This document shows, piece by piece, positions 41,701 to 64,000 of a stretch of DNA of 64,000 nucleotides (the first letter of the stretch is position 1; every line of letters starts with the position of its first letter). The notes beneath the pieces are model-generated. The model saw nothing but the letters and a program-made list of their open reading frames with translations, had not been told where the DNA came from and did not search any database. A program made the translations under genes and the position numbers. The DNA lies in assembly GCF_902652985.1 (NCBI RefSeq), contig NC_047022.1, positions 16,430,001 through 16,494,000 of the forward strand. The letters run 5' to 3'. The stretch comes from Pecten maximus (taxonomy: Eukaryota).

Positions 41701-44700
41701 GCTGGGGTCTGATTACTCATATAATGATTTTTTCTGCTTCTTTTTTAGGATTTGAATGGAACACTACAAATCCAATGGAAAGTGACCGATATACAGTGAC
41801 CTTCCACCAAGATGATAATTGCTTATTCTAGTACCATAGTTATTAGTTCGGCACAAAGTTTATAGTCTGAATTTCCCGTCATATCAAATTTTGTAACAAT
41901 ACATTAAATCACCATGAATGTTTCTGCCACTTGACAACCCGAAAGAGAGTTTAGTGAAGATCACATCAGCAGTTCGCGAGTTTAGCTAGTTACATTGCAT
42001 CGGGACGGGATGGACATAGGTAACACTATATGCCCCTCCATTTCATCAATACAAAGACTACATTTCAAGGGATAACACTGAATATTTCAATCATCTTTAT
42101 CAAACTCTGATTATAAGAAAAACAAATTATTTTGATTTTTTTTTTTACATTTCCCCAAGGATTTCCTTATAAATGGGTTCAATTGTTTATATACATAATT
42201 CTAGAATCTTACTTAGTGTCCATGTCAGTCTTGTGTTGCATCTCCATAATCTCAACCATGTGCAAGTCGATAGCTTGGTTGGGTTTCTGTATGGCCAAAA
42301 CCGCATCCACAACATGCTACAAATATCAATAAGTTTGTTGAGTTCAATGAGTGTCTGTTTAAAAACTATACTGGTAGCTATCCAGGGGTGATACAATAAT
42401 GCTTTGTTGCACCCAAAAAGACAGGATACACATACAATCTCTACAAGAAGGAAATAAAGAAAGTCTGTCTGTCTGTCAAAATATGAACTTTTTCCATTAT
42501 TTCTCATCTTTTCTTTTATCTTTTGGAATGACCAAATCTGACACAATCCAGATTTTAACAGGTACAAGTTAACTAAATGTACAAAGAACAAGGATCCATG
42601 AAACAATCCCTGAAGTATCTATTTCAGTTGTCTTTGTGGTTATTCAAATTCAGATGTAACAGGACAAGTGTTTCAGTGTTTTGTGATCAGAGTAGATTTA
42701 ACAGGACAAGTTTTTCCGTGTTTTGTGATCAGTAGATGTAACAGGACAAGTGTTTCTGTGTTTTGTGATCAGTAGATGTAACAGGACAAGTGTTTCCATG
42801 TTTTGTGATCAGTAGATGTAACAGGACAAGTGTTTCCATGTTTTGTGATCAGTAGATGTAACAGGACAAGTGTTTCTGTGTTTTGTGATCAGTAGATGTA
42901 ACAGGACAAGTGTTTCTGTGTTTTGTGATCAGTAGATGTTACAGGACGTGTTTTGTGATCAGTAGATGTAACAGGACAAGTGTTTCAGTGTTTTGTGATC
43001 AGTAGATGTAACAGGACAAGTGTTTCAGTGTTTTGTGATCAGTAGATGTAACCGGACAAGTGTTTCAGTGTTTTGTGATCAGAGTAGATGTAACAGGACA
43101 AGTGTTTCAGTGTTTTGTGATCAGAAGATGCAACAGGACAAGTGTTTCAGTGTTTTGTGATCAGTAGATGTAACAGGACAAGTGTTTCTGTGTTTTGTGA
43201 TCAGAGTAGATGTAACAGGACAAGTGTTTCTGTGTTTTGTGATCAGTAAATGTAACAGGACAAGTGTTTCAGTGTTTTGTGATCAGTAGATGTAACAGGA
43301 CAAGTGTTTCAGTGTTTTGTGATCAGTAGATGTAACAGGACAAGTGTTTCAGTGTTTTGTGATCAGTAGATGTAACAGGACAAGTGTTTCTGTGTTTTGT
43401 GATCAGTAGATGTTACAGGACGTGTTTTGTGATCAGTAGATGTAACAGGACAAGTGTTTCAGTGTTTTGTGATCAGTAGATGTAACAGGACAAGTGTTTC
43501 TGTGTTTTGTGATCAGAGTAGATGTAACAGGACAAGTGTTTCTGTGTTTTGTGATCAGTAGATGTAACAGGACAAGTGTTTCAGTGTTTTGTGATCAGAG
43601 TAGATGTAACAGGACAAGTGTTTCAGTGTTTTGTGATCAGTAGATGTAACAGGACAAGTGTTTCTGTGTTTTGTGATCAGTAGATGTAACAGGACAAGTG
43701 TTTCAGTGTTTTGTGATCAGTAGATGTAACAGGACAAGTGTTTCCGTGTTTTGTGATCAGAGTAGATGTAACAGGACAAGTGTTTCAGTGTTTTGTGATC
43801 AGAGTAGATGTAACAGGACAAGTGTTTCCATGTTTTGTGATCAGAGTAGATGTAACAGGACAAGTGTTTCAGTGTTTTGTGATCAGTAGATGTAACAGGA
43901 CAAGTGTTTCAGTGTTTTGTGATCAGTGGATGTAACAGGACAAGTGTTTCCGTGTTTTGTGATCAGTAGATGTAACAGGACAAGTGTTTCAGTGTTTTGT
44001 GATCAGAGTAGATGTAACAGGACAAGTGTTTCCATGTTTTGTGATCAGAGTAGATGTAACAGGACAAGTGTTTCAGTGTTTTGTGATCAGTAGATGTAAC
44101 AGGACAAGTGTTTCAGTGTTTTGTGATCAGAGTAGATGTAACAGGACAAGTGTTTCAGTGTTTTATGATCAGTAGATGTAACAGGACAAGTGTTTCCGTG
44201 TTTTGTGATCAGTAGATGTAACAGGACAAGTGTTTCAGTGTTTTGTGATCAGTAGATGTAACAGGACAAGTGTTGCAGTTTTTTGTGATCAGTAGATGTA
44301 ACAGGACAAGTGTTTCCGTGTTTTGTGATCAGTAGATGTAACAGGACAAGTGTTTCCGTGTTTTGTGATCAGTAGATGTAACAGGACAAGTGTTTCAGTG
44401 TTTTGTGATCAGTAGATGTAACAGGACAAGTGTTTCAGTGTTTTGTGATCAGAGTAGATGTAACAGGACAAGTGTTTCAGTGTTTTGTGATCAGAGTAGA
44501 TGTAACAGGACAAGTGTTTCAGTTAACCTTACCTCTGTGAGAAGGTCAGCGAGGTCATTGTACACCTTGGTACGGAGTGAGGTTCTTGCCACCTGGATCA
44601 AGGTATCACGATCTACTTCACGCTTAACCTTGACATCATCCAGGACCTAAAACCAATATTACAGTGAAACTTAATACAACATAAAAAGCACAGGAGATGT

Positions 44701-55897: not shown

Positions 55898-57890
55898 TTT
55901 TTTAGCCCACCATCATCAGATGGTGGGCTATTCAAATCGCCCTGCGTCCGTTTGTCGTCGTCCGTCCGTCCGTCCGTCCGTCCGTCCCTCCGTCCCTCCG
56001 TCCGTCCGTCCCTCCGTCCGTAAACAATTCTTGTTATCGCTATTTCTGAGAAAGTACTGAAGGGATCTTTCTCAAATTTCATATGTAGGTTCCCCTTGGT
56101 GCCTAGTTATGCATATTGCGTTTTGAGACCAATCGGAAAACAATATGGCCGACAGGCAGCCATCTTGGATTTTGACAATTGAAGTTTGTTATCGCTATTT
56201 CTCAGAAAGTACTGAAGGGATCTTTCTCAAATTTCATATGTAGGTTCCCCTTGGTGCCTAGTTATGCATATTGCGTTTTGAGACCAATCGGAAAACAATA
56301 TGGCCGACAGGCAGCCATCTTGGATTTTGACAATTGAAGTTTGTTATCGCTATTTCTCAGAAAGTACTGAAGGGATCTTTCTCAAATTTCATATGTAGGT
56401 TCCCCTTGGTGCCTAGTTATGCATATTGCGTTTTGAGACCAATCGGAAAACAATATGGCCGACAGGCAGCCATCTTGGATTTTGACAATTGAAGTTTGTT
56501 ATCGCTATTTCTCAGAAAGTACTGAAGGGATCTTTCTCAAATTTCATATGTAGGTTTCCCTTGGTGCCTAGTTATGCATATTGCGTTTTGAGACCAATCG
56601 GAAAACAATATGGCCGACAGGCAGCCATCTTGGATTTTGACAATTGAAGTTTGTTATCGCTATTTCTCAGAAAGTATTGAAGGGATCTTTCTCAAATTTC
56701 ATATGTAGGTTCCCCTTGGTGCCTAGTTATGCATATTGCGTTTTGAGACCAATCGGAAAACAATATGGCCGACAGGCAGCCATCTTGGATTTTGACAATT
56801 GAAGTTTGTTATCGCTATTTCTCAGAAAGTACTGAAGGGATCTTTCTCAAATTTCATATGTAGGTTCCCCTTGGTGCCTAGTTATGCATATTGCGTTTTG
56901 AGACTAATCGGAAAACAACATGGCCGACAGGCAGCCATCTTGGATTTTGACAATTGAAGTTTGTTATCGCTATTTCTGAGAAAGTGCTGAAGGGATCTTT
57001 TTCAAATTTCATATGTAGGTTCCCCTTGGTGCCTAGTTATGCATATTGCCTTTTGAGACCAATCGGAAAACAACATGGCCGACAGGCAGCCATCTTGGAT
57101 TTTGACAATTGAAGTTTGTTATCGCTATTTCTGAGAAAGTACTGAAGGGATCTTTCTCAAATTTCTTATGTAGGTTTCCCTTGGTGCCTAGTTATGCATA
57201 TTGCGTTTTGAGACCAATCGGAAAACAACATGGCCGACAGGCAGCCATCTTGGATTTTGACAATTGAAGTTTGTTATCGCTATTTCTCAGAAAGTACTGA
57301 AGGGATCTTTCTCAAATTTCATATGTAGGCCCCCTTGGTGCCTAGTTATGCATATTGCGTTTTGAGATCAATCGGAAAACAACATGGCCGACAGGCAGCC
57401 ATCTTGGATTTTGACAATTGAAGTTTGTTATCGCTATTTCTGAGAAAGTGCTGAAGGGATCTTTCTTAAATTTCATATGAAGATTTCCCTTGGTGCCTAG
57501 TTATGCATATTGCGATTTGAGACCAATCGGAAAACAACATGGCCGACAGACAGCCATCTTGGATTTTGACAATTGAAGTTTGTTATCTCTATTTCTCAAA
57601 GTACTGAATGGATCTTTCTCAAATTTCATAAGTAGGTTCCCCTTGGTTCCTTGTATTGCATTTTTGGACCAGTCTGTCCTGAAAACAACCTGGCAAACAA
57701 ACAGCCATTATCGTTAAATCTCAACTTTCTTATATAGCTAGGATTCCCTTGTTTGAAAAGTACTGGAGGGATGTCTCGATTTGCACAGATTAATAAAATG
57801 AAGGGAAAAGTAGAGAAAAGATCAATCTGACATTGAACCTATGAAGATCATTCAATGGTGGGCGCCAAGATCCCTCTGGGATCTCTTGTT
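55898..57890 (+). mobile_element. HINE-like element carrying a 155-bp tandem array (10 near-identical units plus one diverged)
   Basis: 5' hairpin TAGCCCACCATC-ATCA-GATGGTGGGCTA, (GTCC)n, units at 56031, 56186, 56341 ... 57580; 3' GGTGGGC plus palindrome AGATCCC-TCT-GGGATCT then CTTGTT. Confidence 0.88.
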
Positions 57891-59756
57891 TAATTAATTG
57901 GCCTGAAATCCAAGATGGCAGCAATGGCCGCCATCTTGAAAAACACATTTTAAACTTCTTCTCCAGTTCCACTGGTGCCAATGAACTGGAAATTGGTGAG
58001 GATGTTAAGGAAGAGGAGCCAACAAAGTGTTGTTATTTTTTCGGCCTCGTAAAAACTTTGACATGGCAGTCACAGCGGCCATTTAGGAACATGATTGCGC
58101 AATCATGGTTTTCCTGAACAACACCCATTTCAAACTTCTTCTCAAGTTCCACCAGTGGGATTCAGCACTTACTTACCTGAAATGACCCTAAGATGGTCCT
58201 TACCAAGTGTTGTTAATTTCAGCTCGGTCCAAAATCCACAATGGCCGCCATGGCCATTAAAGTGCTACTATACTTGCTACTGAGTATGTATACTACAATA
58301 GTACAAGGGTCTTTAAAGTCAGATGACCCTTTGGCCTCTTGTTGTTAATTTGTCAAATTTTCAACTTTTAAAGTACATACTATTGGGGGAAAAATCAAGT
58401 TGATCCAATTAATTAACACAATAAGTTTTAAAGATTTGACAAATGTAAAGTAAATATGTATATGATGCCACACAATTACTGTAAAAGTCTTTGTAATTTG
58501 CGCAGTTTAGTTTGTTAAAATTTGTTCATGGATTTGTCCGGGATCCATTCTCTATAGAAATTGATATATATATAATGTAGTGCTATATTGCAGTGACTGC
58601 CATTGTATTGTATTGTAAAGTTTAAAGTCAATAGATGAATTGAATTGAATTGAATATGTGAGCCTCTGTTCAGTGCTCACTTTGCTTTTAGCCAATCATA
58701 TGGTGGGCTATTCATCTGTCCATCCGTAACAATCCTAGTTATCGCTTTTTGATGTAAAGATTTTTTTTAAACTTCAGCCCATTTTGCCTAATGCTAAGAA
58801 AAAAAATTGTGAATTTGAAAGAAAAACTGCAACTTTTGGGAATTTGGCTGTTGCTCAACCATTAACATTAATTTGATTAACATAGGACATGTTCTGCGTG
58901 TATTCTCCATGACATGTGCATACAAACACACATAGCTCGACATACATGTATATGGATGTTTCTATGACCCAAAATGAACTATCTAACCTCAGGGGTCAGA
59001 ACTCCCCCCCCCCCCCCTCCCCCCTTATATTAACATCATGTCAAGCCCCTGTGCACACATAAGAAAGTAATATACAGATGTATTGGCAAACTGCCGCATT
59101 AGTCAACATACATATAAAGAGAGTTTCAATAATACTCTGATTCACTTGTTTGCTATTGTTCATTTGTATAGCATTGCATCGATATCAGTTTTGCTCTTTT
59201 GAGCAAACCAATCCCACGATGACACTGTCTGTATATATAGCAATGACATGTATGTATCTGTGGGTCACATGTTCTGACCCGATAATGATAGCAGTATTGA
59301 CTATGTAAACAAAGCATGGCGGTGTATACGTACGTAGATCAGCATATATATATACAGTCATGTATATAGCAAACAGTACATTATGGCTGTACTAATATAT
59401 AGTGTGCTGTGTAGTTTGTTCAGTTGGTATTATTAGATTCTGTTTTAATTTTTAGAAAACTTCATTCTGTATCATACATGTATTTGGTCTAATAGTCACC
59501 CAGTGGCAGTTAGCAATTTGAAAATTTAAGAATTAAATTGAAAATTTAAGAATTATAAAGAAGTATTCTTAAGGTAATTTTGGAAGAAATGGAAAGATGA
59601 TTAATATTACTAATTATCAGTTGTGACAAAACATTTACATTAACCAATGATTTTTAGTTTGGGAATGGAGGACAAATTCTTTATACATTTTTTTTTAGGT
59701 CTTTACGCATGTTTTGAATTGTTTGATTATTTAATAAATGTATCATTCATATATAC

Positions 59757-60194: not shown

Positions 60195-62523
60195 ATGAGT
60201 GAAGGTGTCGATTCAGAGATCCCTGTGGAGGCTGCCGGGGTAGTCCCTGCAGAAGAAGGGATGTTCTCAACACTTGATTTTTTCATATTATCAGCCCTGG
60301 CTGGTGTTTGTATATACTATTTCTTCTTCAAGAATAAAAAACAAGAGGAACCAACATTTAAAAAGCTAACTGTCCAGTAAGTAGAATGAAGGATATTGTT
60401 AGGGAATGATTTTCTACTAACTGGGAAGTATTTCATTTCCTGGTGCAATATGAAATTAGTTGCATTTGATTATTATACATGTACTTGTATTGATGGGGCT
60501 TAACGTCAACGACGAACATCCTTGTTCCGATTATAACTGAGTCTAACTAGGACACTAAGGGGAAAGGGGATGGGCAAGCAAATGTGAGATGCATTTCCAT
60601 ACATTGTAATCATTGCCAAAGTATCAAATAAGAGGATGGGGCAGACTAGCCTATATCTATATCTAATATCACTTTCTACTACTAACTGTAAATTTACCTC
60701 AATTTGAGATGATAAGTTATGAAAGTAAGAAAATAAAAAACAGAACACATTTTTTTCAGGCCTATGCAGGACCGAGCCAGTAATGCTGGGTTTATAGAGA
60801 AAATGAAAGCCTCAGTAAGTTTCAGATTCTTGAAAAAAGTACAAAAAATATTGATGTTGTAAACATAAAGTATGCCCTGTTTCTTAAAAAGATAAATATA
60901 TAAATATAACTGAATGTATACTGCAAATCAGCTATGTGATACCTGAATAACAATCATTAGTTTTCCTCTGATTCATCAAAAAAAGATTTCAACTCCTTAA
61001 GGAAAAGGAAATTCAGTTTTAATTAAGGTTTAGATATTTTCACTGAATATTTCTACCTTTACTGATATTTTTATTTAATCTGAGTTTAAGCAGCAAGAAA
61101 TGATAATGAATTTGTACCTTCATCTTAATGCCTGTGCTTTTCTAAGATATGTAGCAGCTGTAACCTAGCTGGCAGGTGTAGAAGAATGGGCTTATCTCTG
61201 CCTCTGGTCAACAAGCTTTAAGGTCTTAACAATGAGAATATTCCCATCTACAGTAATAAATATGAAAGACCACTTTTAACAATTTATGCAAAAATATTTT
61301 CTTATTTTGAGTTTGCTTTTCTCCAGGGGAGGAATGTGATTGTGTTTTACGGGTCACAGACCGGAACAGCAGAAGAATTTGCTGGCCGTTTGGCCAAAGA
61401 TGCCACTTGTTATGGGATGAAGGGAATGGTGGCTGATCCTGAAGAGTGTGAGATGGTGAGCTTAATGATCATGTAAATGAGAGTCTTTAGGAAAATAAAT
61501 TCAAAAGAAAAAAATGAAATATTTCATTAGGTTTGATTTATCAATGTAAAACAAGATGATAATGATATTAAGCACTTATAGTGTAGAAGATCGGTAAATA
61601 GAAAAACATTCTGGAGATAACAGGCTCATACTTATTCATATTAAAATCCCACAACAAAATTCATATATTACTGAGTATTTTCTCTGGTTCTGTGGAATTT
61701 GTTATAGATAAATTTTACTGAGGTATTCTGGGAAGGATTCAAAAATGAATTCCGTAAGGTTTGACAATATGAAGATAAATGCATGTTTGAAAGGAACACA
61801 GTATACTATTTCATGGATACTTGATTTCTCCAATTCATAATACCATCATCATCAACTGGAACTCAGTCATTGAAATTTAAGCTAAAAAATGTGGTAGGGT
61901 TCTCTTATGGATCCATGAGCAGTCAAAGTGGATTCAGTAAACTCCATCTCTATGTCAAAACATAGAAGTAAATATGTAAGGAGCATAACGATACTTGATT
62001 TAGCAGGTTGATGATACCCACATCAACAGAAACACATTCATTGAATTTAAACTTGAAAGCAGCTTTGAGTAAGTGAGAGCACATGTCTTTGAGAATTTTC
62101 ATATCAGTATTTCAAAAGCATTTTTCAAAGTCTGCAAATTGGATCTGTCATTAACAGTATTTCATCACTGTAGTTGTTTTTGTTTATTTAGCTGATGGTG
62201 ATATAACATCTACCACCAGAAACAATCATTGTGATGTTATTAAAAAGTGTGACAAACGTAATTCATGGTCATATAAATTCATGGACAAAGAGTACCCACA
62301 AAATGAATCAAAATTAAAGCCTACAAAAATTACAGATTTCACAGAGGTTTGTAAATACATATTTTACCTGCAGGAAGACCTTGTGAAGCTGAAAGACATA
62401 GATAATTCACTGGCAATATTTTGTATGGCGACATATGGAGAAGGCGACCCGACAGATAACGCTCAAGAATTCTATGATTGGTTACAAAATGCTGACTCAG
62501 AACTCAATGGACTTAAATTTGCT
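60195..62523 (+). CDS. POR: NADPH-cytochrome P450 reductase, 5' partial (TM anchor and FMN domain); continues beyond the window
   Basis: Exons 60195-60376, 60760-60814, 61327-61455, 62374-62523. Motifs: TM LDFFILSALAGVCIYYFF, VFYGSQTGTAEEFA, ADPEE, ATYGEGDPTDNA. The next exon start (VFGLGNKT) is present only as truncated tandem copies from 63390. Confidence 0.95.
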
Positions 62524-63379
62524 GTAAGTTATATCTGTGTTCATTCTTAGATTTATTTTCTTGTTAAGATGAAAGTAAATTATAAAGATTTGCTTTGAGG
62601 TTTTTCACATCAATGTCTTTCAAAATAGATTTATTTAAAAAGAGAAATTAATTAATTAAATCTGATGTTATATCTATGTATATATTGTATGATTAGTATG
62701 ATAGAATACATATTTTGTCACATATTTGCTATTCTTCTATATAATACGACCATATCATAAACATGAGACACATGTGTAATAACACTGTTTTGATCTATCA
62801 TTAATTAATATATGACATAGCGTGATTGGCTCTGTAGAGAATAACACCATCCAAGATGAAATTCTCATGTCTTATATAGAAAGGATTTGGGAGAGTTTTC
62901 ACTCATATTCGCAAAAATGAGTTATGTAATAAACAGAATCTTAAACTTGTGTCATATTTCATTTATCATGTGTTGCTTTAAGGCTTGTGGAATATCAAAT
63001 AATAGGACTGAATATGTAAATAGAGGATTTTATATGAGTGGCAATGGTGATGTGATATTGAATTTATATGCCACAAGCCTTTAATAAATTTCATATGACA
63101 TAGCCAAGAGTATAAGATTCTAATCAACACATAACTACTATTTATGAGTTTATAAGCAAAAAACTTTCAATTTTTCGTTTCTATATATATAACAGGTGAA
63201 ATCCGGCTTGGATGAGACGTTTCTGTCTACCCAAACGATCATGCGAAGTTGCATATTTATTATGACATCACAATAGTGTTATTGCACATGACATTGTGTC
63301 TTTCAATATTTATGACATGGTCGTATGACATGGCTGAACAGGCCAGTGATGTGATAATTTTCCATATGACAATCTATTA

Positions 63380-63795
63380 TCTTGTACAGGTGTTTGGGTT
63401 AGGTAACAAGACTGATAACATTTTAATGCTGTAGAACAGGTGTTTGGTTTGGGTAACGAGACTGATAACATTTTAATGCTGTAGAACAGGTGTTTGGGTT
63501 AGGTAACAAGACTGATAACATTTTAATGCTGTAGAACAGGTGTTTGGTTTGGGTAACAAGACTGATAACATTTTAATGCTGTAGTTTTTTATAGTCCATT
63601 CTTTGATCTTTAACAGGTGTTTGGTTTGGGTAACAAGACTGATAACATTTTAATGCTATAGTTTTGTAGTCCATTCTATGATCGTGTACATGTGTTTGGT
63701 TTGGGTAACGAGACTGATTTAAAATAAACATTTTAATGCTGTAGAACAGGTGTTTGGTTTAAGTAACGAGACTGATAACATTTTAATGCTGTAGT
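63380..63795 (+). repeat. Seven tandem copies (mostly 50 bp, up to 77 bp) of a POR acceptor plus the first 24 nt of the VFGLGNKT exon
   Basis: CAG|GTGTTTGG(G/T)TT(A/G)GGTAAC(A/G)AGACT at 63390, 63440, 63490, 63540, 63617 and 63750, plus an AG-mutated copy at 63692. The six AG-bearing copies continue GATAACATTTTAATGCT(G/A)TAG (in-frame stop). Confidence 0.9.
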
Positions 63796-64000
63796 TTTTA
63801 GGTCATCTGACCCAAAGGGTCAGGATGACCTATAGTCATCGTGTTTCGTCCGTCGTCGTCCGCCGTCCGCCGTGCGCCGTGCGCCGTCCGTAAACTTTTT
63901 CTTTCAAAACGCTACTCCTCCTTAACGCTTGGGTGGATTACTTCCAAATTTGGTTTGAAGCATCATTGGGGGAGGGCAATCATATTTTATATAAATGAGG
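63795..64000 (+). mobile_element. 5' end of a HINE-like element (same terminus as 54358), truncated by the window edge
   Basis: TTTTAGGTCATCTGACCCAAAGGGTCAGGATGACCTATAG followed by a GTCC/GCCGT microsatellite. Confidence 0.8.

Follow-up and report, generated by a model that had tools for sequence, protein, structure and literature searches.

In amphioxus, the mirage minisatellite of BflGb6 consists of repeated copies of an intron 3' end and the start of the following exon, numbering 6 and 3 on two haplotypes, with normal splicing, and the same reports describe other mirage minisatellites in Adh3, TnC, and PGBD5, including somatic instability in Adh3 (PMC3087553, PMC3902484). A human counterpart is described for CBS, in which the 844ins68 variant duplicates an intron end together with the adjoining exon start (52+16 nt); splicing uses the distal copy and removes the mutation-bearing upstream one (PMC7490669, PMC1802585). 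At the donor side, the identical splice sites within the polymorphic 37-bp VNTR of human F7 intron 7 are reported to be silent, with the exon-adjacent site being used (PMC1557585). A literature search, with most subscription journals outside its scope, found neither mirages in bivalves nor genome-wide mirage counts.

We analyzed a 64,000-nt stretch of DNA (hereafter the window; G000:C8:16430001-16494000) that contains an array of seven decoy copies at 63390-63794, in intron 4 of the gene for NADPH-cytochrome P450 reductase (POR). We are confident that this array is a tandem duplication of the intron 4 acceptor and the first 45 bases of exon 5, that it differs between two versions of the locus, and that it is likely passed over like any other intronic sequence, as splicing probably selects the genuine acceptor at the end. 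By analogy, the POR array is likely a mirage of the amphioxus type, similar to human CBS 844ins68, and the known cases splice normally. As in the amphioxus mirages described, tandem copies of an intron end and exon start are present, many but not all of which keep the AG, the units are highly identical (81-100% for BflGb6), and haplotypes differ in copy number (6 and 3 for BflGb6; 7 and 1 for POR; PMC3087553, PMC3902484). Unlike these mirages, the POR array has a likely non-chordate invertebrate host and units of 50 and 75-77 nt, and is separated from its exon on one allele by a 2.2-kb HINE. CBS 844ins68, as described, is laid out nearly as the short POR allele (one decoy, 77 nt upstream), but it is a single duplication, and the G runs that promote distal choice between its sites are a feature of CBS. 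Human F7 intron 7, being a donor-side case, mirrors the 16 donor arrays of our survey (see below) rather than the POR locus.

Anatomy of the decoy array and its host gene

POR comprises 14 coding exons separated by GT-AG introns and encodes 677 aa without an internal stop. The true exon 5 is located 2.2 kb downstream of the array, past a Helentron HINE, and matches human POR (E 2e-18), while four further exons match Flavodoxin_1, FAD_binding_1, or NAD_binding_1. The features of this region are listed below, with extended positions lying beyond the window and slashes marking splice junctions.

62374..62523, + strand: POR coding exon 4, ending LNGLKFA; donor GCT/GTAAGT after 62523; phase 0; Flavodoxin_1 match (E 6e-9); covered by RNA contigs
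62729..63341, no strand assigned: nested inverted-repeat (MITE-like), high-copy element in intron 4, immediately upstream of the array; high contig depth
63360..63434, + strand: decoy 1, a diverged intron end followed by 45 nt of exon 5 (1 nt lost); acceptor score of 9.3 bits; first exon base at 63390
63435..63584, + strand: decoys 2-4, 50-nt units that each retain only ~5 nt of intron (AACAG); acceptor scores of 5.6 bits; first exon bases at 63440, 63490, and 63540
63585..63661, + strand: decoy 5, a 77-nt unit; acceptor 10.6 bits; first exon base 63617
63662..63744, + strand: decoy 6, with its AG lost (CAT) and an 8-nt insertion; start 63692
63745..63794, + strand: decoy 7, a 50-nt unit; start 63750
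63798..64000, + strand: 5' part of the Helentron HINE (~2.2 kb), which ends at about extended 65999; ends uncertain by 2 nt in a T-run
Extended 66027-66151 (G000:C8:16496027-16496151; L011:6027-6151), beyond the window: true POR exon 5, VFGLGNKTYEHFNAMG to GDDDG; acceptor 10.6 bits, donor 9.2 bits

A preliminary description of this DNA had reported seven copies of the POR acceptor and exon start, six of them with an AG, and had placed the exon 4 donor after 62523, the start of the HINE at 63795, and the functional exon beyond the HINE. All of this holds, with the HINE starting in the T-run at 63795-63799 and the exon having been located by examining sequence past position 64000. The decoy units start at 63390, 63440, 63490, 63540, 63617, 63692, and 63750, and the six preceded by CAG translate as VFGL(G/S)N(K/E)TDNILML-stop, whereas copy 6, preceded by CAT and carrying the 8-nt insertion, reads VFGLGNETDLK-stop. 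The motif TTAG/GTAACAAG was found in copies 1 and 3. The resemblance to exon 5 is not due to chance, since the first 23 bases of the true exon have 0-3 mismatches to the decoys, whereas their best matches in the unique intron part and in the remaining window have 10 and 7 mismatches, respectively.

Where the preliminary description saw truncated copies lacking YEH, it was right about the stop but not about a cut at NKT: when aligned to the true site, every decoy consists of the intron end and ~45 nt of exon 5, with a 1-nt loss after base 23 and 5-9 differences, and DNILML-stop is the frameshifted reading of YEHFNAM. Similarly, its six intact decoys do have six AGs, but these are unequal. The intron part spans ~30 nt in copies 1, 5, and 6 and ~5 nt in copies 2-4 and 7, so that copies 1 and 5 have a full intron end, and the four 50-nt copies retain ~5 nt of it. 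Based on a weight matrix self-trained on ~280 automatically called sites in the same genome, the 50-nt copies (5.6 bits) are at the 16th percentile of 283 called acceptors, compared to 10.6 bits for the true exon 5 acceptor. Branch-point-like words did not separate the decoys from the true site. Decoy 5 is identical to the true acceptor over 27 nt of intron end and 23 nt of exon start (63590-63639 vs. L011:6000-6049, 50 bases), while the remainder of the unit has diverged. Judging from these sequences, this identity hints at a recent exchange between the array and the coding exon, and gene conversion could in principle carry the K to E and G to S variants of the decoys into the exon.

Two versions of the locus and a Helentron insertion

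A genome search with the array and exon 5 identified one further copy of the locus, on an unplaced 19-kb contig (C3803). This contig is collinear with the window's chromosome (C8) at 94-97% outside of repeats and includes all 14 exons, whose 2034 coding nt differ at 9 positions without any aa change. Intron 4 is 921 nt long on C3803, compared to 3503 nt on C8: the HINE is absent, and the array is reduced to one intact-AG decoy 77 nt upstream of exon 5, plus the tail of another decoy. Position 63320 is joined to 63645 by a 324-nt gap that starts in the right arm of the inverted-repeat element at 62729-63341. The same joint was found in DNA runs X3 and X4, which derive from other samples and studies and both also include pieces specific to the long array. 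C3803 is thus likely the other allele rather than a paralogue, with both long and short forms likely segregating. As in mirages, tandem units run across the host intron-exon boundary, and the authentic boundary is the terminal unit of an intact gene, directly adjacent to a decoy in C3803. The copy-number polymorphism raised by the preliminary description is also seen, with 7 decoys on C8 vs. one on C3803, a difference between haplotypes to the extent that C3803 is an allele.

Several further observations were made around these two versions. An 18-nt minisatellite in POR intron 10 spans 0.73 kb on C8 (L011:9891 to L012:620) vs. ~3.7 kb on C3803 (L122/L123, C3803:9466-13188), which points to a general instability of the locus. 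Run X3 has a 48-nt gap (63001-63050) inside the inverted-repeat element. Elsewhere in the genome, a sequence at L121 (G000:C8:31920185) matches POR exon 5 with 46% identity and presumably belongs to another diflavin reductase.

The element between the array and exon 5 has the complete layout of a Helentron HINE: subTIRs (63801-63811 and 65965-65975), a 5' IR (~63823-63830), a CGTCCGC microsatellite, a central array of ~161 nt x 12, and a 3' palindrome (65981-65992). The oyster Cg_HINE elements are described with this same succession of features, from the 5' subTIR and IR through the microsatellite and central tandem array to the 3' subTIR and the palindrome, and with insertion into a T-run, the likeness to the POR element being one of architecture (PMC7492417). 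The POR element was inserted in the T-run at 63795-63799, for which C3803 provides the empty site. Near-identical copies (96-100%) of its ~206-nt 5' end were found at 39 other places, among 40 candidates scored of 3219, suggesting that the insertion is young. Without the HINE, the spacer is the same as that between copies 4 and 5, indicating that the array formerly abutted exon 5. A second HINE-like element, with a CGTC microsatellite and a 155-nt x 10.5 array, is found at ~55900-58300, upstream of the first POR coding exon.

The two versions may be linked by the following history. A single duplication of ~77 nt would have decayed, acquiring the 1-nt loss and the substitutions common to all decoys, and this decayed unit could then have been re-amplified by unequal exchange or slippage, with the 50-nt units arising through loss of most of the intron part. 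On one allele, the young HINE would then have been inserted into the T-run of the last spacer, and another allele would have lost 324 nt of the array.

Splicing across the array

To the extent that exon definition applies here, it would favour the acceptor that is matched with the strong donor of exon 5 (score of 19.8 for the pair vs. at most 16.5 for decoy pseudo-exons), and rare decoy products would be removed by nonsense-mediated decay. The best decoy pseudo-exon (16.5) nevertheless corresponds to the 41st percentile of real exons. Given this percentile and the identity of the decoy 5 acceptor with the true one, decoy use at some level is possible.

Contigs from 4 of 24 listed runs, two of DNA (X3 and X4) and two of RNA (X6 and X9, these RNA labels being guesses), were compared with positions 62300-63830. 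None of the listed contigs from the two RNA runs, which represent two studies, joined exon 4 to decoy-specific bases, although contigs hide rare isoforms. In X6, a 735-nt contig covers exon 4 and then copy 4 for exactly the 23 nt common to true exon 5, and stops 122 nt past exon 4, exon 5 being 125 nt long. The apparent joint of 62523 to 63540 was thus rejected as an instance of decoy use, since the 23 nt that it spans are all shared with the true exon. In X9, a 3039-nt contig continues for 2543 nt beyond exon 4 with no listed piece on the array, a length close to the 1518 coding nt plus a ~1.06-kb 3' tail up to an AATAAA. The main RNA contigs therefore fit normal splicing, with the exon 4-exon 5 junction inferred from contig exit points and length.

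Within the array, each RNA run also has a single 80-nt contig of low depth, a length that would be expected if a 50-nt repeat had collapsed. The depth of these contigs (9.7 and 5.2) compares to 2.1-3.6 for the intron and to 29.4 and 17.9 for exon 4 in the same runs, and we tentatively read them as collapsed pre-mRNA or DNA. A raised word share in RNA runs (0.15-0.24) was considered as a sign of exonisation and rejected, as the extra cover in X6 and X9 comes from low-depth intron and dispersed repeats. Because 23 bases are identical between the true junction and decoys 4 and 5, short reads would mis-map there and mimic decoy splicing.

The main functional alternative is that decoys 1 or 5 are used to a meaningful extent as poison acceptors, with the resulting stop triggering decay and allele length or the HINE tuning POR output, i.e. 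a rheostat as raised in the preliminary description. Whichever decoy is used, a premature stop results at codon 187 of 677, the acceptors of decoys 1 and 5 are strong (9.3 and 10.6 bits), an AG-bearing decoy is retained on both versions of the locus, and contigs cannot show an absence of decoy use. Poison exons are typically characterized by sequence conservation. The array, on the contrary, differs between alleles in both decoy number and HINE presence, the form found on C8 being absent from the second allele. Moreover, internal donors are weak (at most 5.3 bits, or 5.9 at the start of the HINE), acceptors with equally strong pseudo-exons occur about 0.9 times per kb between called exons (95 in 102,557 nt, an overestimate since uncalled real exons are included), and no decoy-joined contig was found in either of the 2 RNA runs examined, within what contigs can reveal. 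We thus consider a meaningful rheostat quite unlikely, low-level use of the decoys being possible, and the array is likely a tolerated, unstable repeat of the kind known from lancelets and humans, and not a splicing control device.

The remaining alternatives fare worse. Stepwise removal of the intron through AG/GT sites, i.e. recursive or ratchet splicing, was proposed based on the six CAG/GT junctions, which do exist; the GT is, however, part of the Val codon that opens the genuine exon, 57 of 269 sampled exons begin with GT, and the regenerated donor (GCT/GTGTTTG) scores -1.0 bits, compared to 7.1 bits for the real donor and 3.6 bits at the 5th percentile of 283 unfiltered donor calls. Fly recursive sites are described as strong motifs within the longest introns, most segments being >1 kb (PMC6110457), whereas the POR intron is only 3503 or 921 nt long, making this reading highly improbable. 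We give just as little credence to an intron or microexon gain in progress through a duplicated AGGT proto-splice site. While a duplicated AGGT can make a working intron (PMC3265369) and mirages have been proposed as an intron source (PMC3087553), such a gain is described as requiring duplication of AGGT within an exon (PMC3265369, PMC2891723), whereas the decoy AG is the acceptor of an existing intron, so that skipping copies merely lengthens that intron; in addition, the POR frame is lost with all 242 decoy acceptor-GT pairs. Finally, tandem arrays can be mis-assembled, and the exact count of seven is that of the assembled sequence. The copies nonetheless differ by 5-9 substitutions and indels, and unique array junctions (63305-63431, 63559-63618, and 63661-63756) recur in two other DNA samples (X3 and X4). 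The disrupted allele envisaged in the preliminary description is rejected, as the gene is intact and encodes the same 677 aa on both versions. An assembly artefact or a broken allele is hence very hard to sustain, and the POR array is real and polymorphic, and likely silent.

Exon-edge arrays across the genome

The frequency of comparable arrays was estimated from 960 kb surrounding kinesin, myosin, and kinase matches, with exons called by cross-locus homology. After dropping 75 of 283 kinesin/myosin calls with weak support, 269 exons (including 61 from kinases) were searched with 24-nt edge probes. Acceptors were copied upstream in 5 of 264 cases (95% interval: 0.6-4.4%) and donors downstream in 16 of 258 (3.6-9.9%), compared to 0/264 and 0/261 for exon middles and 31/247 and 34/241 (12.6-14.1%) for intron positions 250 nt away, i.e. 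edges are below the intronic background. These edge copies have the polarity of the POR array, in line with our main reading. Five boundaries had first been moved to the exon-proximal copy, and zero wrong-side counts are thus partly built in; before this shift, kinesin/myosin counts were 4/203, 1/201, 15/197, and 1/203. On inspection, the five acceptor cases included three clear arrays (9 to ~36 units), one with its AG lost, and one probably miscalled boundary. Tandem Repeats Finder yielded 6/269 and 17/269, with arrays representing 22% of the sampled DNA. The overall rate on the intron side is thus roughly 1-2% of acceptors and ~6% of donors. The excess of donors over acceptors (Fisher p 0.014) is not firm, as kinesin genes account for 14 of the 16 donor cases and exons of the same gene are not independent (kinesin 14/128, myosin 1/69, kinase 1/61). 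This intron-to-exon gradient is consistent with duplications that are frequent and neutral and are then filtered by selection.

Within the window, a second acceptor mirage is found at 8236-8382 on the minus strand, with four near-identical 36-nt units (22 intron and 14 exon nt) whose acceptors all score 8.8 bits, the frame being kept only by the last (8250). This array fits the first decoy array of the preliminary description. A 40-nt x 47 minisatellite at 42652-44523 (minus strand) was rejected for that role, as it is intronic and begins ~9 nt after a CCT (Cpn60_TCP1) donor, the donor itself being outside the array. In the host exon of the 8236-8382 array, a bacterial-type substrate-binding domain was identified (Pfam Phosphonate-bd, PF12974, E 5e-7), here in an intron-bearing animal gene.

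Larger arrays were observed in the surveyed loci. One kinesin gene (L016, G000:C1:55296260) includes ~36 copies of a 49-nt acceptor unit, 30 of which score like the used site, and another (L038, G000:C10:5199005) includes ~54 copies of a 49-nt donor unit; these two mirages are better test cases for splice-site choice than POR. Acceptor arrays were also found in a kinase gene (L076, G000:C14:4990407; 54 nt x 9, with 38 exon nt) and twice in one kinesin gene (L026, G000:C18:1784265 and 1788011; 54 nt x 12 and a 34-nt array).

It is conceivable, if unlikely, that the long (seven decoys and HINE) and short alleles divert different fractions of POR pre-mRNA to decay, and would thereby form a segregating cis-acting dial. 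If true, this dial would act on POR, the electron donor for microsomal P450s, and mirage length could also contribute widely to splicing variation in this animal, given that such arrays are found at several percent of the exon edges of its genome. Otherwise, the POR array is ordinary, one more mirage, with a modest value as a natural experiment: the same exon is preceded either by one adjacent decoy or by six AG-bearing decoys 2.2 kb away, which provides a clean allele-specific test of 3' splice-site choice.
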